Part shown: positions 6,415 to 58,070 of the stretch, one piece after another
Layout of the letters: each line of letters begins with the position of its first letter
How positions within the stretch are numbered: the stretch's first letter is position 1
Origin: an uncultured virus (IMG/VR IMGVR_UViG_3300027612_000506)
Lineage: Duplodnaviria; Heunggongvirae; Uroviricota; Caudoviricetes
IMG/VR virus record: IMGVR_UViG_3300027612_000506
Strand: one strand, 5' to 3'
DNA length: 64,000 bases
Program-made: the position numbers and the translations under genes
The notes under the pieces: generated by a model
What the model was told of the DNA's origin: nothing
Databases searched by the model: none
The model's input: the letters and a program-made list of their open reading frames with translations, nothing else

Positions 6415-6894
6415 ATGAAATATTCTATGGAATACCCCCATCTTCCTCAACCGCAATATGAATATGATATTACATACAATTTAGGTAATCCGCAAATTGA
6501 ATTATCTTGGAAGAATATTAATCGTATTGTAGATAAAATTGAAGCTCAAGTACGAGACAAAGGTTATACCGCTGTAGTAGGGCTTGCTCGAGGGGGTGTT
6601 GTACCTGCTATTATGTTGAGTCACCGATTAGGAATAAAGTTTGAATCGGTCACATGGCAAACACGGGATGGCGGGTTTCAGGAGATAGGTCGTCTAAATA
6701 ATATCGTTAACCGAGAAAAGGTTTTAATTGTAGATGATATTTGTGACTCTGGGTTAACACTAACACAAGTAAAAGCAAATCATCCAGATGCAGATGTTGC
6801 TGTGTTAGTGACCAAAGTGGACACAAAACTAGTTGACTTTGTAGGTGAGACATATTATAATGATAATCGTTGGGTAGTATTTCCTTGGGAGTAG
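6415..6894 (+). CDS. Type I phosphoribosyltransferase (Gpt-like)
   Basis: GLARGG, PRPP loop VLIVDDICDSGLT, C-terminal WVVFPWE. Confidence 0.9.
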   Translation: MKYSMEYPHLPQPQYEYDITYNLGNPQIELSWKNINRIVDKIEAQVRDKGYTAVVGLARGGVVPAIMLSHRLGIKFESVTWQTRDGGFQEIGRLNNIVNREKVLIVDDICDSGLTLTQVKANHPDADVAVLVTKVDTKLVDFVGETYYNDNRWVVFPWE

Positions 6895-6896
6895 AT

Positions 6897-7577
6897 ATGA
6901 AAATAAGTGACAAAATTAAACAGCGTCTTGAATTGGACGCATATCGGTATCATGCCGCGGATAATATTAGTCAGTATATACATGAGGGAGAACATACTCT
7001 TTTAATTGATGAAGTATCTGAAAAATTTGAGGCTGTATTACAGAGTCTTGTAATTGATACTGAGGATGATCCTAATAGTAATGGAACTGCTCGTCGTCTT
7101 GCTAAGATGTATATTAATGAAATTATGGGTGGTCGTTATTATCCTAGTCCTAAAGTAACATCATTTCCTAATGATGGGCAGTATGACCAACTAATAGTCG
7201 TTCGTTCTGATATTAAGTCGATGTGTTCTCATCATCACCAACCCGTAACAGGTATTTGTTATATCGCCTGTATGCCGGGTGAGAATCTTATTGGGCTGTC
7301 TAAGTACACCCGAATCGCACAACACCTTGCATCTCGTGGACACTTACAAGAAGAACTAACAGAAATGATTGCTAGTGAGATTGAGCGTCTTACACATTCA
7401 CCTGCTGTTGGTGTTTACATTAGAGCAAGACACGGGTGTTGTGAAAACCGTGGCATTCGTTCATCTAACAGTGCCACACAAACTACTGTTCTTAAGGGTG
7501 CATTAAAAAATGACCCTGCTCTAAAGAACGAGTTCATGCACAATATTCAAATACAGGAGAATTTGTGTAATGGATAA
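6897..7577 (+). CDS. folE: GTP cyclohydrolase I
   Basis: TARRLAKMY, SMCSHHH, GLSK, QEELT, HGCCENRG. Confidence 0.95.
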   Translation: MKISDKIKQRLELDAYRYHAADNISQYIHEGEHTLLIDEVSEKFEAVLQSLVIDTEDDPNSNGTARRLAKMYINEIMGGRYYPSPKVTSFPNDGQYDQLIVVRSDIKSMCSHHHQPVTGICYIACMPGENLIGLSKYTRIAQHLASRGHLQEELTEMIASEIERLTHSPAVGVYIRARHGCCENRGIRSSNSATQTTVLKGALKNDPALKNEFMHNIQIQENLCNG

Positions 7578-10534: not shown

Positions 10535-11625
10535 TTTACTTAGTTGATCTTGAGTATGTAGAGTCTCGTTACACATCACAATGGAAAACAGAATTTCCTG
10601 CGCTTTTTAAGTGGCATGGTCTTGATGTGAAAGTCATTGAAGGTCCTGCTGATATTGCCGCATGTACTACACCAGGTGCGTTTCTTAACTTCTCAGGTAC
10701 AAATGTATATAAAGCAGAGCAAGTAAAAAGAATTGCCAACCTCTTTACATCTAATGATATTAAAGATGGTGACCAGTTTGTATTTGCGGATGCATGGCAC
10801 CCTGGTGTAATTAATCTTAAATATATGGCAGAACTATTAGGCATTAAGATTAAAATTCATGGTCTTTGGCATGCAGGTAGTTATGACTCTCAAGATTTTC
10901 TTGGTCGATTGATAGGCAATGCTGGATGGGTAAGACATGCTGAAAAAAGTATGTTTGAATGTTATGATTATAATTGGTTTGCTTCTGACTTTCACATTGA
11001 TTTGTTTATAGAGGAAATGCTTGATACAGATAAAAGAACTGGGCGTATTCGTTATATGGATACTGCAAAAGGTAAAATCTCAAAAACTGGTTGGCCTATG
11101 GATTATCTGCACAATGAGATCTCTTGCGATAAAGTAGGAACAAATAAAGATGATATAATTTTGTTCCCACATCGTATTGCACCTGAAAAACAACCAGAGA
11201 TTTTTGAGGACTTAGCAAACGAACTACCTGAATATCAATTTATCTTTTGTCAAAAAATGAATCTGTCTAAGAAAGAATATCATGCATTACTTGGTAAGGC
11301 AAAAATGGTATTCTCTGCTAACACGCAGGAAACATTGGGCATTGGTTGTTTCGAGGCTTTATGTGCAAATGCAATTCCATTAGTCCCAGATAGATTATCA
11401 TATACTGAGATGTACTATTCAGAGTTTAAGTATGACAGTGAATGGACTGAGAGTATGGATAGTTACATGAAACACAAGGAAAAACTTATTAGCCGTATTC
11501 GTAATTTAATGAGTAATTATAGTACAGATGCTGTACAAAGTGTAATAAATACAAATAGAGAATTTTTAGAATGTGATTATTTTTCTGCTGAAAGTCTAGT
11601 AGAAAAAATTAAAGAGGTGATGTAA
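10531..11625 (+). CDS. GT-B (GT4-like) glycosyltransferase
   Basis: HRIAPEKQP, SANTQETLGIGCFEA (E-x7-E), VPDRLSYTE. Confidence 0.8.
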   Translation: MIYLVDLEYVESRYTSQWKTEFPALFKWHGLDVKVIEGPADIAACTTPGAFLNFSGTNVYKAEQVKRIANLFTSNDIKDGDQFVFADAWHPGVINLKYMAELLGIKIKIHGLWHAGSYDSQDFLGRLIGNAGWVRHAEKSMFECYDYNWFASDFHIDLFIEEMLDTDKRTGRIRYMDTAKGKISKTGWPMDYLHNEISCDKVGTNKDDIILFPHRIAPEKQPEIFEDLANELPEYQFIFCQKMNLSKKEYHALLGKAKMVFSANTQETLGIGCFEALCANAIPLVPDRLSYTEMYYSEFKYDSEWTESMDSYMKHKEKLISRIRNLMSNYSTDAVQSVINTNREFLECDYFSAESLVEKIKEVM

Positions 11626-12083
11626 TGTATTATTCAACAAAGACTTATGGACACGAACGCGGCTTATCTTGTGCGTTTAGACAACCCCTAGCTAGTCATT
11701 CACACTGTAGTCTTATTCATGGTTACAGTCTCGCTTTCAGTTTTAAATTTGCCGCTAGAAACCTAGATGATAAAAACTGGGTAGTAGACTTTGGCGGTCT
11801 TAAGGATCTCAAAAATTGGCTAGAGAAAATGTTTGACCACACATTGGCTGTGGATAAAGATGATGTTAATCTCAAAGATTTTCTAGAGTTAGAAGAAAAG
11901 GGCTTGGCTGTTGTTCGTGTTATGAATGGTGTCGGGTGTGAGAAATTTGCCGAACATGCTTTCTGGTTTGCTGATGAGTTAGTCAAGACAATGACTGATG
12001 GTAGATGTCGTTGTGTTTATGCTGAGTGTAGGGAACATGGCGCAAACTCAGGCATTTATGAACCAGAGGTAATTGAAATTTGA
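11625..12083 (+). CDS. queD: 6-carboxy-5,6,7,8-tetrahydropterin synthase
   Basis: HCSLIHGY, WVVDFG, FDHT, GCEKFA. Confidence 0.9.
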   Translation: MYYSTKTYGHERGLSCAFRQPLASHSHCSLIHGYSLAFSFKFAARNLDDKNWVVDFGGLKDLKNWLEKMFDHTLAVDKDDVNLKDFLELEEKGLAVVRVMNGVGCEKFAEHAFWFADELVKTMTDGRCRCVYAECREHGANSGIYEPEVIEI

Positions 12084-16287: not shown

Positions 16288-16316
16288 TTGACTTCCGTGT
16301 GAAAAGAGTCCATAAT
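16288..16316 (+). promoter_or_regulatory. Early promoter, AAAAGAGTCCATAAT class
   Basis: TTGACT-17-CATAAT; near-identical to 18608 and sharing the extended -10 with 38504. Confidence 0.85.
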
Positions 16317-16341
16317 ATGGGTATAGTGAGGAGTAAGTATT

Positions 16342-18558
16342 ATGGAAATTGCACAGAAGAGCACATTAGCAAAGTTACTAGCCGCAGAAAATATATCGGT
16401 TGAGCACCGTAAGGTCTCAACCGCGGCTTTTGACCTCAAATCTCGCAAGATCATCCTACCCATTTGGAAGACAATGGACAATGACCTTTACGATATGCTT
16501 ATCGGTCACGAGGTAGGTCATGCATTGTACACCCCCCTAGAAGGTTGGCACGATGAGGTATCCGAAAAGGGTCAAGGCTTCAAGTCGTTTCTCAATGTCA
16601 TTGAGGACGCTCGTATTGAGCGTAAGATTAAGGACAAGTTCCCAGGCCTAGTTCGTAACTTTTACAAAGGTTATCAGAACTTATACGCCAATGACTTCTT
16701 CGGCATTAAAGGTCGAGATATTGATGCCCTCCCTCTAATTGACCGCATTAACCTACATTATAAGATAGGTAGTATGGCGGGTATTAATTTCACTGCCGAG
16801 GAACAGTCCTATATTAATCGTATTGACCTTGCCGAAACATGGGAAGATGTTATGGCGATTGCCAACGATCTGTTTGAATACTCGAAAGAAGAACCTGAGA
16901 TGCAGGACATGTTAGATGACCTTCAATACTCAGATGAGTATGACGATGAGGACGAGGAAGATAATGATATGTCCTCTGGTGCAGGTGATGACGATGAGGA
17001 CGAGGATGAAGAAGAACAGGAAGAAGCTAATGATTCCTCAGGCACTGCTCCTCGGTCAAACACAGATGAGAAAGAAGAAGTGGAAGACGAGTCTGCTCCC
17101 CAAGAACAAGGTGAGAGCAAAACACCCCAGTCATTTACAGATCAAAATTTCCGTGAAAGCGAGGACCGCCTTTTAGATAAGGGCGCCGACGATATCCTGT
17201 ATGCAAAGTTTCCTAAAATGAATATCAAGCGGTGCGTGATGCCCATTAAAGATGTATGGGACACAGAGTTTGAGGGGGTGTTTAAGCCTACATACCACTC
17301 AGAAGAAGATATTCCTTGGACTGAAATTGCAGATGAAGCGTGGAGCGAGTTTAATCTCAAGAATGCTTCTTACATTAATACACTTGTCCAGCAGTTTGAG
17401 ATGAAGCGTAAGGCTAGTGAGTTTGCCAAGGCTCGTCAAAACAAGACAGGTAAGCTAAATGTAGATAAGCTCTGGGCGACACGGTTGACCGAGGATGTGT
17501 TCTTGTCAAACACTGTAGTTCCTAAAGGCAAAAACCACGGTATGATGATGTTCATTGATTTTTCAGGTTCAATGAACCAGGACTTAGAATCTACTATTGA
17601 GCAGACATTGATTCAGATTAGTTTTTGTAAAAAAGTGAATATTCCTTTTGATGTTTATTCATTCACCACTAGCTCTAAAGGTATATGCAAACCTGGCGAG
17701 TCATATCGCGAGTCTCTTGCCATTGCAAATAATGGATTTGAGCCAGGTAAACTTGCAATGGTAAAAGAGGATCTTCAGATTAATCACTTGATGTCTTCCT
17801 CATTGGACGCCGCAACATATAAAAAAGTATTCCGCAAAATGCTAACATTGGCGAAGGCTATGGCTCCTAGAAGTTGGCACCGCGGACCAGAAAGTATAAA
17901 TGAACGATATATTGGGCGTTACCATTTGCCTGACCAACTAGGATTGGGAGGCACACCGCTTGCCGAGACTACTCTTGTAGCCCGTGACCTTATTAAGGAG
18001 TTCCGCAATAAACACAATGTTGAGGTGATGAATGTAATTTTCCTCACAGATGGTGATGCAACAGGTGAACTAGAAGTCCCTGATGGACAATCCTTACGCA
18101 AGGTTGGCTCTATTGCAATTACTGAAGGTGCAGTTACAACGGAATACAAATTCCGAGACTTGTTTTGGGCGCGGTATGGGGGTGATGTGTGGTATCGTGC
18201 GGTACTGAAACACCTTAAAAATACAGTAGATTGTAATTTGATTAACCTGCACATTGGTAGTTTCAAACGCCGTGACCTAATGGACATGTTCATTACAGCA
18301 CCGGACTATGAATACTCCAAGTTTGAGGAGAAGTACAAAAAAGAATGGACTGCCAATAAATTCTTTGAGCTTGAGAACTTCAAAGAGTTTGATGTGATGT
18401 ATGCCATTAAGAATGGTAACAACCTCAAGGTTGACGATGAGGGCTTGACCGTTAAGTCAGATTCCAAGAGTGATGTACTTCGAGGATTCAAGAAGTTTCA
18501 GAAAAATAAGACTACCAGCCGAGTATTCCTGAATAGGTTTATTGATAAGGTAGCCTAA
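16342..18558 (+). CDS. CobT-like protein: HExxH metallopeptidase-like N-terminus, acidic linker, VWA domain
   Basis: HEVGH, NVIEDARIE, MIDAS DFSGS...GGTP...LTDG; paired with a MoxR/CobS ATPase. Confidence 0.8.
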   Translation: MEIAQKSTLAKLLAAENISVEHRKVSTAAFDLKSRKIILPIWKTMDNDLYDMLIGHEVGHALYTPLEGWHDEVSEKGQGFKSFLNVIEDARIERKIKDKFPGLVRNFYKGYQNLYANDFFGIKGRDIDALPLIDRINLHYKIGSMAGINFTAEEQSYINRIDLAETWEDVMAIANDLFEYSKEEPEMQDMLDDLQYSDEYDDEDEEDNDMSSGAGDDDEDEDEEEQEEANDSSGTAPRSNTDEKEEVEDESAPQEQGESKTPQSFTDQNFRESEDRLLDKGADDILYAKFPKMNIKRCVMPIKDVWDTEFEGVFKPTYHSEEDIPWTEIADEAWSEFNLKNASYINTLVQQFEMKRKASEFAKARQNKTGKLNVDKLWATRLTEDVFLSNTVVPKGKNHGMMMFIDFSGSMNQDLESTIEQTLIQISFCKKVNIPFDVYSFTTSSKGICKPGESYRESLAIANNGFEPGKLAMVKEDLQINHLMSSSLDAATYKKVFRKMLTLAKAMAPRSWHRGPESINERYIGRYHLPDQLGLGGTPLAETTLVARDLIKEFRNKHNVEVMNVIFLTDGDATGELEVPDGQSLRKVGSIAITEGAVTTEYKFRDLFWARYGGDVWYRAVLKHLKNTVDCNLINLHIGSFKRRDLMDMFITAPDYEYSKFEEKYKKEWTANKFFELENFKEFDVMYAIKNGNNLKVDDEGLTVKSDSKSDVLRGFKKFQKNKTTSRVFLNRFIDKVA

Positions 18559-18636
18559 GTCCTTGATTCATTTGAGGAAAAGAGTTTGTATTTTGGTCAT
18601 AAAGTGCTTGACTTCCGAGTAAAAAGAGTCCATAAT
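18556..18636 (+). promoter_or_regulatory. IHF site (18556-18568) plus early promoter TTGACT(18608)-17-CATAAT
   Basis: TAAGTCCTTGATT matches YAANNNNTTGATW. Confidence 0.75.
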
Positions 18637-18683
18637 ACATGTATAGTTAGAAAGTTAGACATTTACTTGTGAGGAGTTATATT

Positions 18684-19844
18684 ATGTCAGATCGTCAAAC
18701 ACTTTTAAATACACTGGGTAACATTGACAACGGTACGGGTGTCTTCACTCGCATTGAGGTTATTGAAGCGGCTAAGAACGCAGGGCTTAAATTCCCTCAC
18801 TGGTTCTTCCGTGAGAACAAGGTTGCCCGTAACCAATATGCATTGAACATGCAGGGTGTGGTGGTTCCTATGCAGGCTAAACCCCAGACTCCTGTTATGA
18901 CAATTGAACCTCAGGAGGCTAAGGTAGTGACACAGGCTAAACTAGCGGTCGAGGTGGACAACCTTGTCCCCGTGGCTGATGCTACTTATGTGCCGTTTGG
19001 TTTCAGTAAGGACTTGACCCAGATTCTCAAGTCCCGAATGTTTTATCCTACTTTCATCTCAGGCTTGTCAGGTAACGGCAAGACTACGATGGTAGAACAG
19101 ACTTGCGCTAAGTTGAAGCGTGAGGCTATCCGAGTAAACATCTCAATTGAGACGGACGAGGATGACCTCATTGGTGGTAATACACTGGTCGATGGTAATG
19201 TTGTTTACCGTGAGGGTCCAGTACTTACCGCAATGAAGCGAGGCGCAGTTCTTATCCTTGATGAGTTGGACCGCGGTTCAAACAAGTTGATGTGCCTACA
19301 AGCCATCCTCGAGGGTAAGGCTTACTTTAATAAAAAGACAGGCGAGATGGTTACTCCTGCTCCTGGATTCAATGTCATTGCAACGGCTAATACAAAAGGC
19401 CGCGGTTCAGATGATGGCAAGTTCATGAGTGCTCAAATTCTAGATGAGGCATTCCTAGAACGGTTTGCAATCACAGTTGAGCAGGAGTACCCATCTCAGG
19501 CGCAGGAGAAAAAGATTATTCTCGGCAAGATGCAGAAGGCAGGCAAGCTGGATGAGGACTTTGCGGAGAAGCTAGTCACCTGGGCTGATATTATCCGTAA
19601 GACATTCTATGAGGGTGCTATTGAAGAGCTCATCAGTACCCGTCGATTAGAACACATTGTCAATGCATATGCAATGTTCAATGACCGCATGAAAGCTATT
19701 GAGCTTTGTGTTAACCGCTTTGATGCAGATACTAAGTCTGCGTTTACAGAGCTATACACTAAGGTTGATTCAGGTGTACTAGGCACTGAGGATGAAGTGG
19801 CTGATGTTGAGAGCCCAGAAGAAGTAGAAGGAGTATCATTCTAA
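18684..19844 (+). CDS. MoxR/CobS-like AAA+ ATPase
   Basis: GLSGNGKT, LILDE, ATANT, AFLERF, STRRL. Confidence 0.85.
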   Translation: MSDRQTLLNTLGNIDNGTGVFTRIEVIEAAKNAGLKFPHWFFRENKVARNQYALNMQGVVVPMQAKPQTPVMTIEPQEAKVVTQAKLAVEVDNLVPVADATYVPFGFSKDLTQILKSRMFYPTFISGLSGNGKTTMVEQTCAKLKREAIRVNISIETDEDDLIGGNTLVDGNVVYREGPVLTAMKRGAVLILDELDRGSNKLMCLQAILEGKAYFNKKTGEMVTPAPGFNVIATANTKGRGSDDGKFMSAQILDEAFLERFAITVEQEYPSQAQEKKIILGKMQKAGKLDEDFAEKLVTWADIIRKTFYEGAIEELISTRRLEHIVNAYAMFNDRMKAIELCVNRFDADTKSAFTELYTKVDSGVLGTEDEVADVESPEEVEGVSF

Positions 19845-20131
19845 TGAGTAAAAAAGTTTACAAGTTCCGTGAAGATGAGTTGATTGAGGAATTTAAAAAG
19901 TATATTGATTCTACTTACAAAGGTCACTATGGTCAAGGCGGACTTCAGTCCGCTGAGATCATTATAGATAGGGGTCATGGTCAAGGATTCTTTCATGGCA
20001 ATATCGACAAGTATAATGACCGCTACGGCAAAAAGGGTGATACCCCAGATGAATGGCGTAAGGATATTGTGAAGACTATTCACTATGGATTTCTTGCTTT
20101 GTATGAACACGATAGAGTTCACGGCAAGTAA
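19844..20131 (+). CDS. Conserved phage hypothetical protein (DUF3310-like)
   Basis: YIDSTY.GHY, GNIDKY.DRYGKKG. Confidence 0.6.
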   Translation: MSKKVYKFREDELIEEFKKYIDSTYKGHYGQGGLQSAEIIIDRGHGQGFFHGNIDKYNDRYGKKGDTPDEWRKDIVKTIHYGFLALYEHDRVHGK

Positions 20132-20137
20132 ACGGTT

Positions 20138-20197
20138 TGGGGCGGCGGTGTGACTCTAACTCTCTCTCCTCACTATGACACCGCCGTCCCATCTTTT
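20138..20197 (+). terminator. Intrinsic terminator: 14-bp GC-rich stem, 26-nt C/U-rich loop, short U tract
   Basis: TGGGGCGGCGGTGT pairs with ACACCGCCGTCCCA, followed by TCTTTT. Confidence 0.75.
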
Positions 20198-20204
20198 ATA
20201 AATA
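20197..20204 (+). promoter_or_regulatory. Late promoter TATAAATA
   Basis: Exact motif upstream of 20238. Confidence 0.7.
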
Positions 20205-20237
20205 ATTAACTATTTAAATGTTGTAAGGAATAAAATA

Positions 20238-20561
20238 ATGCCAGATATAAAAATTGTTGTTACCCGAGAGAGTATTAGTGACCAATGGCCTGCTGAACAA
20301 TCTTCGGATACGGAAGCCTACGCATTAGCGACAGTACAGGCGGCACAAAATGGTGATCACAATTGCGAGATGTCTTTTATTATAAGTGAGGACGGACTAA
20401 GCAAAGAACTTACTCTTGAATTTCCTACAACCGCAGATAGAGATGCATGGTGGGCGGATACACTAGACACCGAACTGGACGCAAAACTAAACGCCCGAAA
20501 CGATGATTCAGATAACCCTGTAACCTATTGGGCAGGTAATGCGGAAGATTATCCTAGCTAG
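20238..20561 (+). CDS. Acidic late hypothetical protein
   Basis: AAGGA RBS and late promoter. Confidence 0.6.
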   Translation: MPDIKIVVTRESISDQWPAEQSSDTEAYALATVQAAQNGDHNCEMSFIISEDGLSKELTLEFPTTADRDAWWADTLDTELDAKLNARNDDSDNPVTYWAGNAEDYPS

Positions 20562-26425: not shown

Positions 26426-26457
26426 GGGGGAGCCGCGTTTCCTTTCCGCGCTCCCCC
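26426..26457 (+). terminator. GC-rich hairpin after hsp20
   Basis: GGGGGAGC-CGCG...CGCG-CTCCCCC; weak U tail. Confidence 0.55.
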
Positions 26458-31076: not shown

Positions 31077-32141
31077 ATGAGCTTACTTGATAAACTTAGA
31101 AAGAACTCGACTATTAAAGAGTCGTCTGTTCTTACAACATCTAAATTCTTTGGAACAAAGGATTTGATTCAGACTTCGGTGCCTGCATTGAATGTAGCAC
31201 TTAGCGGTAGATTAGATGGGGGACTTACTCCGGGACTAACGGTATTTGCAGGACCTAGTAAACACTTTAAGACTGCATTTGCTATGTTACTTGCTAAATC
31301 TTATTTGGACAAGTATGATGATGCAGTTATTCTATTTTACGATTCAGAGTTTGGTGCACCTCAAGGTTACTTTACTAGTTTCGGCATTGATACAGATAGG
31401 GTTGTCCATACTCCTATTACTGATATTGAACAATTGAAACATGATGTGATGTCTCAACTTAACGGCATTGAAAGAGGCGACCATGTTATGGTCATTGTCG
31501 ATTCAGTGGGCAACTTAGCAAGTAAGAAAGAAGTAGATGATGCACTTGAAGGTAAGTCTGTTGCTGATATGACTCGTGCAAAACAAATGAAATCCCTGTT
31601 CCGTATGATTACACCTCACCTTACAATTAAGGATATTCCTGCTGTAGTGGTTAACCATACCTACAAGGAAATTGGATTGTTTCCGAAAGATGTTGTTTCA
31701 GGCGGTACAGGCATTTACTACTCCGCAGATAACATTTTCATTATCGGACGCCAACAAGAAAAAACAGGCACAGACATTACAGGATACAACTTTATTATTA
31801 ATGTTGAGAAGTCCCGATATGTTCGTGAGAAGTCTAAAATTCCTGTTGAAGTATCCTTTGAAGGTGGTATTAGTAAATGGTCAGGCTTGTTGGCTATGGC
31901 ACTTGAGTCTGGGCATGTAACTAAGCCATCCAATGGTTGGTATCAACTCGCTAAAGATGGTGAGGACAGCAAAAAGTACCGCACAAAGGAAACATACACT
32001 AAGGACTTCTGGTTGCCTATCTTAGCAGATGAAACATTTTCATCTTGGATTCAGAAACGATATCTAATTGCTAGTGGTGATATTATTCAGGAAGAAGTTT
32101 CCGCCGAAGATATCGCAGAGGCTTATGGCGATGTTGACTGA
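31077..32141 (+). CDS. uvsX: RecA-like recombinase UvsX
   Basis: AGPSKHFKT, FYDSEFG, VVSGGTG. Confidence 0.95.
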   Translation: MSLLDKLRKNSTIKESSVLTTSKFFGTKDLIQTSVPALNVALSGRLDGGLTPGLTVFAGPSKHFKTAFAMLLAKSYLDKYDDAVILFYDSEFGAPQGYFTSFGIDTDRVVHTPITDIEQLKHDVMSQLNGIERGDHVMVIVDSVGNLASKKEVDDALEGKSVADMTRAKQMKSLFRMITPHLTIKDIPAVVVNHTYKEIGLFPKDVVSGGTGIYYSADNIFIIGRQQEKTGTDITGYNFIINVEKSRYVREKSKIPVEVSFEGGISKWSGLLAMALESGHVTKPSNGWYQLAKDGEDSKKYRTKETYTKDFWLPILADETFSSWIQKRYLIASGDIIQEEVSAEDIAEAYGDVD

Positions 32142-32781
32142 GATTGCAAATCTCTTCAATAATCTCGATGACCTAAATGTTACACATTATTCTGAACCGT
32201 GTAGTGTTTGGGTTGTTGATGACTTTCTACCAACTAATATTTTCGAGACATGTTTACAAGAAATTAATACTCGTACTATATGGGAGGATGTAGATGTTAA
32301 GACACCTTTACCTTATGTTACTCGATATGAATATAGGAAGTTGGACAAAACTCCTTACACCGAAAGCATAATTAATTATTTAAATGCCGGCAAGTTTCTT
32401 ACCTGGATTGAAAGTAAATCTAAATACAGTGGATTATTACCAGACCCATACTTGCATGGTGGAGGTGTTTGTAGAATCCCCGCCGGGAAAACACTTACTG
32501 TCCACAAGGATTTTAATTGGAACGATAAAATAAAATGTAGCCATGTAATAAATGCATGTCTTTATATGGACACTGGCGGCGACTTGCAATTTTGGGACGG
32601 AGATGAATGTATATTTACTGTAGATGTTAAACCAAATCGGTTAATATTTTGGGAAGACCCTCATCTATACAAACATGGGTTCAGTGAAATGTTAGAAACA
32701 GATAGGACAAATTTGGTGCTGTTTTATTATGAAAGTGATTGTACCCCACCTGAAAATGTCAATAAATCTTATGAGGCTTAA
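32131..32781 (+). CDS. 2OG-Fe(II) oxygenase
   Basis: PDPYLHGGG, VHKDFN, GGDLQFW, HGF. Confidence 0.8.
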   Translation: MLTEIANLFNNLDDLNVTHYSEPCSVWVVDDFLPTNIFETCLQEINTRTIWEDVDVKTPLPYVTRYEYRKLDKTPYTESIINYLNAGKFLTWIESKSKYSGLLPDPYLHGGGVCRIPAGKTLTVHKDFNWNDKIKCSHVINACLYMDTGGDLQFWDGDECIFTVDVKPNRLIFWEDPHLYKHGFSEMLETDRTNLVLFYYESDCTPPENVNKSYEA

Positions 32782-38332: not shown

Positions 38333-38450
38333 ACCCCTCAAATTACCCTAAATTACCCCTATATTTACCCTATACAGCACCCTACATACACTAAGTGTGT
38401 CCTAACATACACCTTATATACCCTCCCTTACAGGGCAATCTAGGGCTTTC
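38333..38450. repeat. Non-coding C-rich tract with ACCC(C)T repeats about 11 bp apart
   Basis: Repeats at 38333, 38345, 38355, 38367, 38379 and 38420. Confidence 0.55.
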
Positions 38451-38451
38451 C

Positions 38452-38532
38452 TAACCTATTGATTTTGTTAGGAAAAAGATTTCAAAAAGATTGCAAAAAA
38501 AGGTTGACATTGGACCCAAAAGAGTCCATAAT
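38452..38532 (+). promoter_or_regulatory. IHF site (38452-38464), A-tracts and early promoter TTGACA(38504)-17-CATAAT
   Basis: TAACCTATTGATT; shares AAAAGAGTCCATAAT with 16288 and 18608. Confidence 0.8.
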
Positions 38533-38565
38533 AAGTATATAAAGTGAAGAGTTAGGAGAAAAATT

Positions 38566-38903: not shown

Positions 38904-38945
38904 GTCAACAAAAAGGTTGACAACCGTTTAAATTGGTAGTATTAT
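38904..38945 (+). promoter_or_regulatory. Sigma70 promoter with upstream GTCAA
   Basis: TTGACA 38917, 17 bp, TATTAT 38940. Confidence 0.7.
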
Positions 38946-38978
38946 TGTATTATAAATTAATTAGTGAGGAATATCATT

Positions 38979-39460: not shown

Positions 39461-39537
39461 GGTCCCTTAGCTCAGCTGGATAGAGCAACAGCCTTCTAAG
39501 CTGTGGGTCCCAGGTTCGAATCCTGGAGGGATCGCCA
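39461..39537 (+). tRNA. tRNA-Arg(TCT)
   Basis: Cloverleaf, ACAGC-CTTCTAA-GCTGT anticodon arm, GTTCGAATC, CCA end. Confidence 0.95.
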
Positions 39538-39541
39538 ATAT

Positions 39542-39617
39542 GCTCCAGTAGCTCAGTTGGCAGAGCAGGGGTTTTGTAAACCTCAGGTCGGCGGTTCGAA
39601 TCCGTCCTGGAGCTCCA
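39542..39617 (+). tRNA. tRNA-Thr(TGT)
   Basis: GCTCCAG/CTGGAGC acceptor stem, TTTGTAA loop, CCA end. Confidence 0.95.
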
Positions 39618-39632
39618 TATGAGAGAGGTGTT

Positions 39633-39809
39633 ATGGAAAAGTATCGAATAGTTTATCGTCATTGGAAGAAGCCCGATGTTCTGCTTGAAGTTACAGGGGT
39701 TGAACTTCCAATGAATCCTAAGAGTGACCGCATTGTCATAAAGCAGGATGATGGTAAGCATGAGGATATTATCCGTAGCACTATTGTAAGTAAAGAGATT
39801 GTGCTATAG
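39633..39809 (+). CDS. Hypothetical protein (58 aa) between tRNAs
   Basis: GAGGTG RBS; its stop overlaps the tRNA-Trp 5' end. Confidence 0.55.
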   Translation: MEKYRIVYRHWKKPDVLLEVTGVELPMNPKSDRIVIKQDDGKHEDIIRSTIVSKEIVL

Positions 39810-39881
39810 GGGAGAAGTGTTACGGTAGCACGGCTGGCTCCAACCCAGTAAGACGAGGTTCAATTCCTTGCTCCCTTGCCA
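39808..39881 (+). tRNA. tRNA-Trp(CCA)
   Basis: AGGGGAG/CTCCCTT acceptor stem, CTCCAAC loop, GTTCAATTC, CCA end. Confidence 0.9.
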
Positions 39882-39900
39882 ATTATTAAGGAGATATATT

Positions 39901-40062
39901 ATGTATTTTTGTATCTGGGAAATTTTTGTAAACGGCATCAGTAAAGGATGTGTTAGAGCATTGACTGAAAATGATGCTCGTAATCAGTATTACATGAAGT
40001 ATGGCGGCGCAAGTCGTTACTCAGGTATCGGAATGAATAATATAAAAGCAGTTAAAGTTTGA
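39901..40062 (+). CDS. Hypothetical protein
   Basis: AAGGAG RBS. Confidence 0.55.
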   Translation: MYFCIWEIFVNGISKGCVRALTENDARNQYYMKYGGASRYSGIGMNNIKAVKV

Positions 40063-40139
40063 CGGGGCTTGGCGCAGTCTGGTAGCGCACCTGGTTTGGG
40101 ACCAGGGGGTCATAAGTTCGAATCTTATAGCCCCGACCA
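40063..40139 (+). tRNA. tRNA-Pro(TGG)
   Basis: CGGGGCT/AGCCCCG acceptor stem, CCTGG-TTTGGGA-CCAGG, CCA end. Confidence 0.95.
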
Positions 40140-55691: not shown

Positions 55692-57490
55692 TGGCAAAAC
55701 AAGATTATATGGGTATTCAAATTGACCCTTCCCGGGATGAACTATTTGACAAGCTGGGACTTAACCGGTTAAAAGAAAGTTATATGCGAGATGATGAGAC
55801 ATCTCCACAACAAAGGTTTGCGTATGTAAGTAAACAATTTGGATCTAATCCTGAACACGCACAGAGGCTTTATGAATATTCTAGTAAACATTGGTTGTCT
55901 TATAGTACCCCTATTCTATCTTATGGTCGCAGTAAGCGCGGCATGCCTATTTCTTGTTTTCTTAACTACATTGAAGATACAGCGGAAGGGCTTGTCCAAA
56001 ACTATTCTGAGACCTCTTGGCTCTCTATGCTTGGGGGTGGTGTTGGTATTGGGTTTGGGATTCGTGCGGCAGACGATAAGTCAACAGGAGTTATGCCCCA
56101 TCTTAAAACCTACGATGCAAGTTCCTTGGCTTATCGACAAGGCCGCACTAGACGAGGAAGTTATGCCGCTTACCTAGATATTTCACATCCCGACATCGGA
56201 ATGTTCCTCGAGATGCGTAAACCTACTGGTGACCCAAACATGCGCTGTCTCAATCTCCATCACGGTATCAATATCAGTGATCGCTTTATGGAAATTGTTG
56301 AACGCTGTATGACTGATCCTAACGCCGACGATGGTTGGAATTTGTGTGACCCCCACACTGGTGAAGTAAGAGATACTGTATCAGCGAAGGCACTGTGGCA
56401 AAAGATTCTAGAGTTGCGTATGGAGACCGGTGAACCATACATTCATTATATTGACACAAGCAATCGTTTGATGCCTGAGTTTCAGAAAGAACTTGGGTTG
56501 AAAATCCATCAGTCAAATCTTTGCTCTGAAATTATCCTACCTACAAACGAACAAAGAACCGCTGTATGCTGTTTGTCATCTGTTAACTTAGAATACTATG
56601 ATGCTTGGTCGAAGGATCCTATGTTCCTCAAAGACATGGCAGAGATGTTAGACAATGTGTTACAGTTCTTTATTGACAATGCTCCAGACGCTGTAGCAAG
56701 AGCTAAGTTTTCTGCTACACAAGAAAGGAGTATTGGTATCGGAGCATTGGGATTCCATGCCTATCTACAGAAAAAGAATCTTGCATGGGAAGGCGCTATT
56801 GCTAAAGGCGCTAACATGAGAATGTTTAAGTTAATTAGGAGCAAATTGGATGAAGCAAATATTGAACTTGGTAAAGAGCGAGGCGAGGCTCCTGATGCAA
56901 AGGGCACAGGCAGAAGATTTAGTCATGTTATGGCTATCGCTCCCAATGCTAGTAGTAGTATTATTATGGGAAACACTTCGCCGTCCATTGAACCATATCG
57001 TGCAAACGCATATCGTCAGGACACACTTAGCGGTGCGTATCTCAACAAAAATAAGCATTTGGATAATCTCATTAAGAGTAAAATTGAAGAAAATCCAAAG
57101 ATTGATTATGATGAAACTTGGTCTTCAATAATTGCAAATGATGGGTCAGTACAACATCTAAAATTCTTGGATGAATATGAGAAAGATGTATATAAAACAT
57201 CAATGGAAATTGACCAGCGGTGGGTAATTGAACATGCGGCTGATAGACAGGTATTTATCGACCAAGCACAATCGCTGAACTTGTTCTTCCGCCCTGATAC
57301 AAACATTAAGTATCTACATGCCGTACATTACCTAGCATGGAAACAGGGATTGAAAACTTTATATTATTGCCGTTCAGAAAAACTCGGTAAAGCAGACAAA
57401 GTGTCTAACCGAATTGAGCGACAAATTATTAAAGAAATTGATATGAGTAGTTTGGTAAATGATGAAGAATGCCTGGCCTGCGAAGGCTAA
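55691..57490 (+). CDS. nrdA: Class I ribonucleotide reductase alpha subunit (no ATP cone)
   Basis: PISCF, SNLCSEI, APNASSS, TLYY, C-terminal CLACEG. Confidence 0.95.
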   Translation: MAKQDYMGIQIDPSRDELFDKLGLNRLKESYMRDDETSPQQRFAYVSKQFGSNPEHAQRLYEYSSKHWLSYSTPILSYGRSKRGMPISCFLNYIEDTAEGLVQNYSETSWLSMLGGGVGIGFGIRAADDKSTGVMPHLKTYDASSLAYRQGRTRRGSYAAYLDISHPDIGMFLEMRKPTGDPNMRCLNLHHGINISDRFMEIVERCMTDPNADDGWNLCDPHTGEVRDTVSAKALWQKILELRMETGEPYIHYIDTSNRLMPEFQKELGLKIHQSNLCSEIILPTNEQRTAVCCLSSVNLEYYDAWSKDPMFLKDMAEMLDNVLQFFIDNAPDAVARAKFSATQERSIGIGALGFHAYLQKKNLAWEGAIAKGANMRMFKLIRSKLDEANIELGKERGEAPDAKGTGRRFSHVMAIAPNASSSIIMGNTSPSIEPYRANAYRQDTLSGAYLNKNKHLDNLIKSKIEENPKIDYDETWSSIIANDGSVQHLKFLDEYEKDVYKTSMEIDQRWVIEHAADRQVFIDQAQSLNLFFRPDTNIKYLHAVHYLAWKQGLKTLYYCRSEKLGKADKVSNRIERQIIKEIDMSSLVNDEECLACEG

Positions 57491-58070
57491 AGAAATAGCA
57501 AATAATATCCCCAGAGACAAACGAATTGCAGTAGTTGTCTCTGGGGGTTGGGATAGTGCCGTGTTATGGCACATTGTTTATAATGAGTGTCTTGAGCGCA
57601 GACAAAGTTGTCGCCCATATACTGTACCTAAATTAGATGGGGCTGTACATTGGGCTAATCAAGTATTAACACTATCAGGTTATACCGACACAACAAATGT
57701 TATAGGTAGTGTTGATGCTGAAGATCCCTCTAAATATGTTGCAAGCGGCATCATTGATATCTTTGAAAAGGGATTAGCTGATATTGTTTATGTGGGAGTA
57801 ACGAAATATTATGAAGGTATGGAACCCGACCACGATAGACAACATGCAAGTCAATACAATGCCGAGGATAAATGCCTACAACCTTTTTCTAATATGACAA
57901 AGGATGAGACTGTACAGTTAGGTTTTGATTTGGGTATTGCACAGGGACTGATGCATACCACGCATAGTTGCACAGAACAGGATGTTGGTAGGTGCCAATA
58001 TTGCCAGTGGTGTAAGGAGCGAGAATGGGCATTCAATGCCATTGGTAAAATAGATGAAGGAAGAAACTAA
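57459..58070 (+). CDS. QueC-like PP-loop ATPase
   Basis: VSGGWDS; THSC...RCQYCQWCKER zinc motif. Confidence 0.7.
   Translation: MMKNAWPAKAKEIANNIPRDKRIAVVVSGGWDSAVLWHIVYNECLERRQSCRPYTVPKLDGAVHWANQVLTLSGYTDTTNVIGSVDAEDPSKYVASGIIDIFEKGLADIVYVGVTKYYEGMEPDHDRQHASQYNAEDKCLQPFSNMTKDETVQLGFDLGIAQGLMHTTHSCTEQDVGRCQYCQWCKEREWAFNAIGKIDEGRN

Follow-up and report, generated by a model that had tools for sequence, protein, structure and literature searches.

A conserved hairpin behind the cobT-cobS-p95 genes of uncultured marine T4-like phages carries a loop complementary to cobT and cobS leaders

Why should a phage gene cluster close with a GC-rich hairpin that holds a wide pyrimidine loop open, and what, if anything, does that loop recognize? 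What is known of post-transcriptional control in lytic phages concerns mostly proteins such as RegA and RegB, together with a few sRNAs. The hairpin considered here lies in a 64,000-nucleotide stretch of DNA from an uncultured virus (hereafter the window), and an initial annotation had proposed its loop as a candidate antisense RNA that shuts off early expression. The window has a GC content of 38.8% and 80-odd open reading frames (ORFs), all on the + strand, including T4-type replication and recombination genes (gp46/47, gp45, gp44/62, regA, gp43, uvsX, uvsY, uvsW, and gp41) and marine auxiliary genes (peptide deformylase, hsp20, cobS/cobT-like genes, peroxiredoxin, and 7-deazaguanine synthesis). 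The nearest cultured phages, pelagiphage HTVC008M and cyanomyophages, share only ~50% identity in CobS and gp43, and a near-identity search of a phage collection with the window gave no match; the source phage is a member of an uncultured clade of marine T4-like myophages. The photosystem gene psbA was not found in the contigs of three relatives (one estimated to be 86% complete), which makes a cyanobacterial host doubtful.

The window holds several further features. Candidate 7-deazaguanine genes lie at 6870-7577, 11625-12083, and 57459-58070, together with radical-SAM genes, and the presence of a GTP cyclohydrolase I, a PTPS/QueD-like gene, and a gene with a QueC-like C-terminal match suggests 7-deazaguanine (queuosine-type) modification of DNA or tRNA. 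Four tRNA genes are clustered at 39461-40136 (Rfam tRNA, 51-68 bits). A 237-codon open frame at 32068-32781 overlaps the end of uvsX and fills an apparent gap of 642 nt between uvsX and gp41, which is therefore not non-coding.

The hairpin occupies positions 20138..20191 of the + strand, with a 5' arm at 20138-20151, an open loop at 20152-20177, and a 3' arm at 20178-20191. The inverted-repeat list gives arms of 14 nt each that are 93% complementary, with one G-U pair, and the minimum free energy (MFE) is -29.7 kcal/mol in a 96-nt context (z -4.6) and -28.3 in a 68-nt context (z -5.7, with 0/200 shuffles equally good). All 26 nt of the CU-rich loop, including the core CUCUCCUC at 20164-20171 (+), are unpaired in the predicted fold. 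Arms, fold, and loop letters thus bear out the 14-bp GC stem with a 26-nt loop that was initially described. The sequence CTCTCCTC occurs once in the 64 kb. The hairpin starts 6 nt past the stop codon of a 95-aa ORF (p95; DUF3310, phrog_480; 19844..20131, +), the last gene ahead of it, and is followed by a U-rich tail, TCTTTTAT (20192..20199, +), a possible intrinsic-terminator tail in which 5 of the 8 nucleotides behind the stem (UCUUUUAU) are U. Directly behind lies TATAAATA (20197..20204, +), which we take to be the T4-type late promoter consensus; the window contains 14 copies, all on the + strand, versus 6.85 expected.

One reading is a plain 3'-end hairpin, either an intrinsic terminator or an exonuclease block, whose loop is conserved for some other reason, for example as the site of an RNA-binding protein. 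A GC stem with a U-rich tail closing an operon is what this reading expects, and the stem (14 bp, 93% complementary, -28 to -30 kcal/mol) is as GC-rich as that of an intrinsic terminator. The loop is not short, at 26 nt in the window and 18-26 nt in relatives, and a terminator consensus scan with a loop limit of 3-8 nt did not call the hairpin. The U-tract is good in one relative (L004) and poor in two others (L016 and L008), so termination is not assured. Between the cobT and cobS promoters and position 20138, the inverted-repeat list contained no second GC-rich intergenic hairpin, and among the inverted repeats from the cobT promoter to gp45 this is the sole GC-rich intergenic one of its size. 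Given the two promoters (16288 and 18608) and the absence of another strong hairpin ahead of 20138, we predict that the hairpin forms the 3' end of a cobT-cobS-p95 transcription unit shared by both messages. Contigs of four metatranscriptome runs were thin on cobT/cobS and none reached the hairpin, leaving them uninformative on expression, ends, and strand. Elsewhere in the window, a second GC-rich hairpin follows the hsp20 gene (26426-26457; z -3.8 in context), with 11 predicted pairs in an 8-bp and a 3-bp helix separated by a one-base bulge, a 9-nt pyrimidine loop (UUUCCUUUC), and no U-tract immediately after it.

The promoters that would feed this unit are of one type. A sigma-70-like promoter, TTGACT-17-CATAAT, precedes the cobT-like gene (phrog_459; 16342..18558, +) at 16288..16316 (+), and the same TTGACT-17-CATAAT arrangement at 18608..18636 (+) precedes the gene of a cobS-like AAA ATPase (18684..19844, +), the start of which we corrected from GTG 18669 to ATG 18684, behind a Shine-Dalgarno (SD) sequence GAGGAG at 18672-18677. 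A third promoter and its leader (38503..38555, +) lie ahead of ORF 38566. These three promoters share the 16-mer AAAAGAGTCCATAATA, which spans the spacer and -10 element of TTGAC-type promoters and occurs in three exact copies, all intergenic, at 16302-16317, 18622-18637, and 38518-38533; the nearest record to the window (G001), a 39-kb contig of L001, contributed no further promoter copies. With the cobT -10 element at 16311-16316, the cobT message would start at about 16323. Five to six nucleotides past each 16-mer copy stands a second -10-like element, (G)TATAGT or TATATA, of which TATAGT after the -10 is retained in relatives; a tandem promoter, a conserved initial transcribed sequence, or a sigma-dependent pause site could each account for it. 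The 233-nt spacer that precedes the third promoter contains degenerate direct repeats of the TACCCT/ACCCTA type (38333-38440), which could be iterons or protein-binding sites.

All five matches to the loop's reverse complement that the initial annotation had listed were recovered at their coordinates. The longest, ATAGTGAGGAG at 16323..16333 (+), is 11/11 complementary to loop positions 20167-20177; its first base is the predicted first nucleotide of the cobT message, and it continues through the SD GAGGAG. The cobS leader carries two segments within 18649..18676 (+), AGAAAGTTAGA at 18649-18659 (10/11) and GTGAGGAG at 18669-18676 (8/8, including the SD). The remaining two lie in the leader of the third promoter, AGAGTTAG at 38548-38555 (8/8, +), and at 38962..38970 (+), where TAGTGAGGA (9/9) belongs to the leader of an ORF whose start we corrected to ATG 38979, behind a TTGACA promoter at 38917. 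Apart from the 11-mer, neither strand of the 64-kb window has an antisense match of at least 10 nt, and a match of this length was reached by 0.2% of loop shuffles, or by 0.4% when the core CUCUCCUC was kept. Taken singly, the 8- and 9-mers at 18669, 38548, and 38962 are at chance level, and the window contains eight further 9-mers, seven of them on the + strand and one on the minus strand, that fall at none of the leaders considered here. By their position, these short matches do stand out. Ranked against the 85 leaders of the window, the cobT leader is first both by duplex energy (-20.7 kcal/mol) and by longest match, and the three leaders behind the identical 16-mer promoter rank 1, 5, and 7 by energy; two sites outside leaders (53743 and 63118) score above the cobT leader when the entire window is scanned for raw duplexes. 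GAGGAG itself occurs in 3/85 leaders, two of which are those of cobT and cobS. The loop modules complementary to the 5' end and to the SD are in the wrong order for colinear pairing with both leader segments simultaneously. RNAcofold of the hairpin with the leaders gave ddG values of -1.4 to -4.1, which are uninformative because the nested model cannot place intermolecular pairs in a hairpin loop.

Is the loop then a general repressor of early messages? In the form initially proposed, a stable fragment of the 3' untranslated region (UTR) would accumulate and block the ribosome-binding sites of early phage messages and possibly of the host. The four window leaders with the best longest matches all stand behind TTGAC-type promoters, two of them 18 kb from the hairpin, and the anti-SD core would be able to pair with any GGAG-type SD. 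However, of the window's six intergenic TTGAC-type promoters, those of uvsY and gp45 have leaders without any loop match, GAGGAG is confined to the few leaders counted above, and in relatives the extensions past the core are specific to cobT and cobS. Since the gp45 and uvsY early-type leaders are not targets, a general early shut-off is not indicated; we regard it as improbable, and this part of the initial proposal is not upheld.

We collected CobS loci from IMG/VR (80) and from metagenome contigs (56); with the window included, 70 loci had a p95 homologue, and 68 of these had enough downstream sequence to be evaluated. The core CTCTCC(T/C)C was located no more than 170 nt from the p95 stop in 60/68 loci, representing 24 distinct sequences (16 short and 8 long types); the eight loci without it comprised one in-clade contig (L063) and seven of distant clades. 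Among the short types folded, 10/10 genotypes formed a stem of 10-19 bp whose loop of 18-26 nt stayed open (z -4.0 to -7.6). Stem sequences vary between relatives (for example, the GGGCGGCGG..., AGAGGCGCAGCGGC..., and GGGGGCUAGGUUG... types), and the loop keeps ...CU(A/C)AC...CUCUCCUC... while the stems change, with the core as CUCUCC(U/C)C in RNA. For the short type, the structure is taken from per-sequence folds: MAFFT alignments lost the register of the two arms, so that neither a formal pair count nor a covariance model is given. Hairpin and loop core are thus conserved in relatives, a point in favour of the initial annotation. An IMG/VR pattern scan for a GC stem with the core yielded 68 loci, among which the element was restricted to this clade and this position; the low-GC matches of the scan were of the same family at the same position. 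The high-GC matches and four checked mid- or low-GC ones (L159, L177, L183, and L185) were intragenic and taken as chance. Rfam contained no family at gathering score across the window, nothing at E <= 10 for 19900-20400 except chance miRNA/snoRNA rows, and nothing at E <= 1 for seven relatives.

One subclade carries a longer version of the element (L012:4558-4719, with L013, L018, L033, L088, L093, L110, and L123). It is a multi-helix form of ~150 nt that presents the same CU-rich loop on a 7-bp apical stem, and 3 of its 34 predicted pairs show compensatory double changes among the eight sequences. It also carries a conserved single-stranded UCGUUAUUAAUA stretch and has no Rfam match, and we consider it a candidate for a structured RNA in its own right. 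The sole in-clade locus without the hairpin, the IMG/VR contig L063 (CobS 73% identical), has its cobT start codon ~6 nt past a TATCAT -10 box, so that the cobT message looks leaderless there.

The position of the element bears on another possible role, in which the loop would sequester the SD of the downstream gene p107 in read-through early transcripts, and transcripts from the late promoter TATAAATA would escape. Escape of late transcripts from SD sequestration is the arrangement of the T4 genes e, soc, and 49. A late promoter does stand between hairpin and next gene in 14/15 short-type sequences that are complete downstream (one of the 16 short types, L005, is truncated), and in relatives the SDs of the downstream genes are of the AGGAGA type. 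In the window, however, the SD that follows is AAGGA, in a leader outside the best 15 of 85, and where the loop extends past its core, it is the upstream leaders that are matched and not the downstream one. The promoter consensus is present in 0/8 long types, and all of these, as well as L008, keep the element behind p95 with other downstream genes and without the late promoter. The element therefore belongs to the upstream unit. The late promoter notwithstanding, the T4-type arrangement of e and soc was not found here, and control of p107 by the loop is very improbable.

If the element belongs to the upstream unit, its loop can be compared with the leaders of that unit in each phage. For 12 genotypes, we searched the loop reverse complement against the 50 nt before the start codons of the genotype's own cobT and cobS, with p values from 5000 shuffles that held the 8-nt core in place. 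A significant match of 10-13 nt to an own leader was present in 6/12 genotypes, or 4/7 lineages when relatedness is considered. The longest match lay in the cobT leader in the window (11 nt, p 0.004), L009 (11 nt, p 0.0006), and L016 (10 nt, p 0.0022), and in the cobS leader in L004 (13 nt, p 0.0008) and L014 (12 nt, p 0.0008); L035 matched both, with 13 nt in cobS and 11 nt in cobT (p 0.0002). The other six genotypes had only matches of 7-9 nt to the anti-SD core that were no better than core-preserving shuffles: 9 nt in cobS of L008 (p 0.12), 8 nt in cobT of three long types (L012, L018, and L033; p 0.43-0.44), 7 nt in both cobT and cobS of L019 (p 1.0), and 7 nt in cobS of L031 (p 0.60). 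In the sense orientation, control matches reached 4-6 nt only, in 12/12 genotypes. In six genotypes, a search of the entire locus (4.7-9 kb, or the 64-kb window, both strands) placed the loop's longest antisense match in the cobT or cobS leader; the whole-locus scan also returned one additional 10-mer, intragenic, in L153.

The matched segments differ among lineages (ATAGTGAGGAG, ACTTGTGAGGAGA, GAGGAGTTAGA, and TATAGTTAGGAAA). The TATAGTTAGGAAA match uses the 5' half of the loop and the extreme 5' end of the leader, not the SD core, and in L004, the cobT leader of which is without a GAGGAG SD, the match shifts to cobS. Because leader sequences are conserved between relatives, a loop often matches a non-cognate leader equally well; the window loop, for example, matches the leaders of L008, L009, and L016 over 11 nt. 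Covariation of loop and leaders is therefore apparent between lineages, where the register differs, but is not strict within groups of relatives. Duplex energies set against core-preserving shuffles were significant (p < 0.05) in 3/12 genotypes (window 0.037, L004 0.005, and L009 <0.0025), with 0.052 for L016, and not significant for the AU-rich 12-13-mers of L014 (0.41) and L035 (0.34). Among 20 distant cobS leader genotypes (CobT N-terminus <= 66% identical), no terminal hairpin with a leader-complementary loop was found; their best reverse-complement matches to the cobT leader were 8-11 nt and scattered, with none of at least 8 nt in L104, and two of these genotypes, L019 and L031, carry the hairpin itself. 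The view that the loop is antisense to early-like leaders behind TTGAC promoters beyond a generic anti-SD is thus supported, but nothing past the SD core is matched in 3/7 lineages.

These results also bear on the plain-hairpin reading, which would explain the leader complementarity as a by-product of purine-rich SD regions and shared ancestry. It accommodates the six of 12 genotypes without a match past the SD core, the energy test that is significant in 3/12 only, and an invariant part that is the core CUCUCCUC, as for a fixed ligand. Terminator loops are, however, normally short and unconserved, whereas here a loop of 18-26 nt remains open and is preserved in sequence across differing stems. 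Exact own-leader matches of 10-13 nt in four registers (p <= 0.004 each with the core fixed) are likewise unexpected for a by-product, as are their standing as the best matches of whole loci and the short matches of the sense-orientation control. On balance, a hairpin with no bearing on the leaders seems rather unlikely to us.

Alternatively, the complementarity could reside in the DNA, with a double-stranded TATAGTGAGGAG-like motif serving as an operator at early transcript starts and an inverted copy placed between the hairpin arms. GTATAGT(G/T)AG sits right behind the -10 of the three promoters with the identical 16-mer, a classical operator position, and an L035-type phage has three TATAGTTAGGA copies, two in leaders and one in the loop. 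Yet the matched motif varies, being GAGGAGTTAGA in L009 and an SD-proximal ACTTGTGAGGAGA far from the start in L004; every loop copy is antisense; and the placement within a covarying GC stem whose loop is open speaks for a role of RNA or a single strand. We consider such an operator highly unlikely.

How does the element compare with known RNAs that display anti-SD sequences? The closest likeness is to the icaR mRNA of Staphylococcus aureus, in which the sequence UCCCCUG of the 3' UTR pairs with that message's own SD (PMC3868564). Both cases have a C/U-rich anti-SD motif at the 3' untranslated end, complementary to the SD of their own message, and the expected effect in the phage would by analogy be a block of initiation. 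The phage loop is complementary to the SDs of its own predicted mRNA over 11 nt in cobT and 8 nt in cobS of the window, and five further genotypes have own-leader matches of 10-13 nt. In contrast to icaR, the phage motif lies in the open loop of a terminal GC hairpin on a polycistronic message of 1.5-3.9 kb, the loop matches two leaders (cobT and cobS) and reaches the extreme 5' end, no duplex of RNase III length would form, and the phage pairing is a prediction from sequence.

The Cuckoo RNAs of Alphaproteobacteria (CcsR/RSs0680, ar14) consist of 2-4 adjacent hairpins, each with the loop motif CCUCCUCCC (PMC4615179). Their stems vary by compensatory changes and a loop of 9-27 nt keeps an anti-SD-like pyrimidine motif, and the phage element likewise combines variable stems with a conserved anti-SD-like loop in this size range. 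As described there, Cuckoo RNAs differ in being chromosomal stand-alone sRNAs, whereas the phage hairpin is at the 3' end of an operon. Membership is ruled out, on the features that this source gives, by the single hairpin (or one loop on the multi-helix form), by the core CUCUCCUC, and by the lack of an Rfam match at E <= 10. The cyanobacterial RNA Yfr10 carries ACUCCUCACAC in a single-stranded loop on a stem (PMC6778093), and this motif is an ultraconserved 11-mer in an unpaired region of Yfr1/Yfr10 (PMC2190773). The window loop shares CUCCUCAC, 8 contiguous nt of the 11, but the conserved part here is CUCUCCUC, not the CACAC end. With the full 11-mer absent, no Rfam match, and no psbA in the contigs of three relatives, mimicry of Yfr1/Yfr10 was rejected.

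Loop-displayed C/U-rich seeds also bind ribosome-binding sites in the C-rich hairpin loops of S. aureus RNAIII and in the c4 antisense RNA of phages P1/P7, and c4 RNA derives from the very transcript under its control; these systems differ from the phage element in organism, sequence, and architecture. The T4 endoribonuclease RegB inactivates a subset of early messages via GGAG Shine-Dalgarno sequences, which is a functional analogy only, RegB being a protein nuclease and not an antisense loop. In architecture the hairpin resembles the loop-displayed anti-SD RNAs, namely Cuckoo RNAs, Yfr10, and RNAIII, but it lacks defining features of the Cuckoo and Yfr10 families and is not a member of either. 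A full-text literature search listed no account of a comparable hairpin from marine T4-like phages. The element is a conserved, uncatalogued phage RNA element on the known theme of anti-SD loops and 5'-3' UTR pairing.

We consider it somewhat probable, from the complementarity and its distribution, that the hairpin presents an anti-leader, anti-SD loop for pairing with the leaders of cobT and cobS, in cis or as a 3' fragment in trans. At the predicted 3' end of the unit, the GC-rich stem holds a pyrimidine loop of 18-26 nt open, and the core of this loop, CUCUCCUC, is complementary to GAGGAG(AG), a strong SD that is rare here; loop extensions in several lineages add complementarity to the first nucleotides and the SD region of the phage's own cobT and/or cobS leader. 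The loop would then probably base-pair with these leaders, covering the ribosome-binding site and the 5' end, and this pairing would limit the translation, and perhaps alter the stability, of the cobT/cobS messages. Structure, conservation, and the complementarity with its statistics are results of the sequence analysis; the transcription starts, the termination, the pairing in vivo, and the direction of its effect are inferred from them. Since the cobT and cobS messages are both predicted to end at the hairpin, pairing within one molecule is possible. In cis, an intramolecular 5'-3' UTR contact could form only in a finished message, which would make translation of the first cistron self-limiting. 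In trans, a nuclease-resistant 3' fragment could act on the cobT/cobS leaders and on similar ones (ORFs 38566 and 38979). The two best-matched leaders are in the hairpin's own transcription unit, so cis pairing is at least as likely as a trans fragment.

A more specific version of this anti-leader reading, which we put forward tentatively and with some doubt, is that the hairpin works as a built-in timer of its own message, with the ~150-nt long form as an elaborated, structured version. The leader would be free and translated while the cobT/cobS mRNA of 1.5-3.9 kb is being made; once the 3' hairpin is transcribed, its loop would capture the 5' end and SD of the same molecule, closing the message. 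The design is simple and testable by reporters with compensatory mutations.

If pairing of this kind does occur, an early operon would sense its own completion and shut its ribosome-binding sites, an RNA-only feedback in abundant marine T4-like phages, and bacterial 5'-3' UTR pairing would be extended to phages. It may also bear on why CobS/CobT-like proteins need tightly limited expression.
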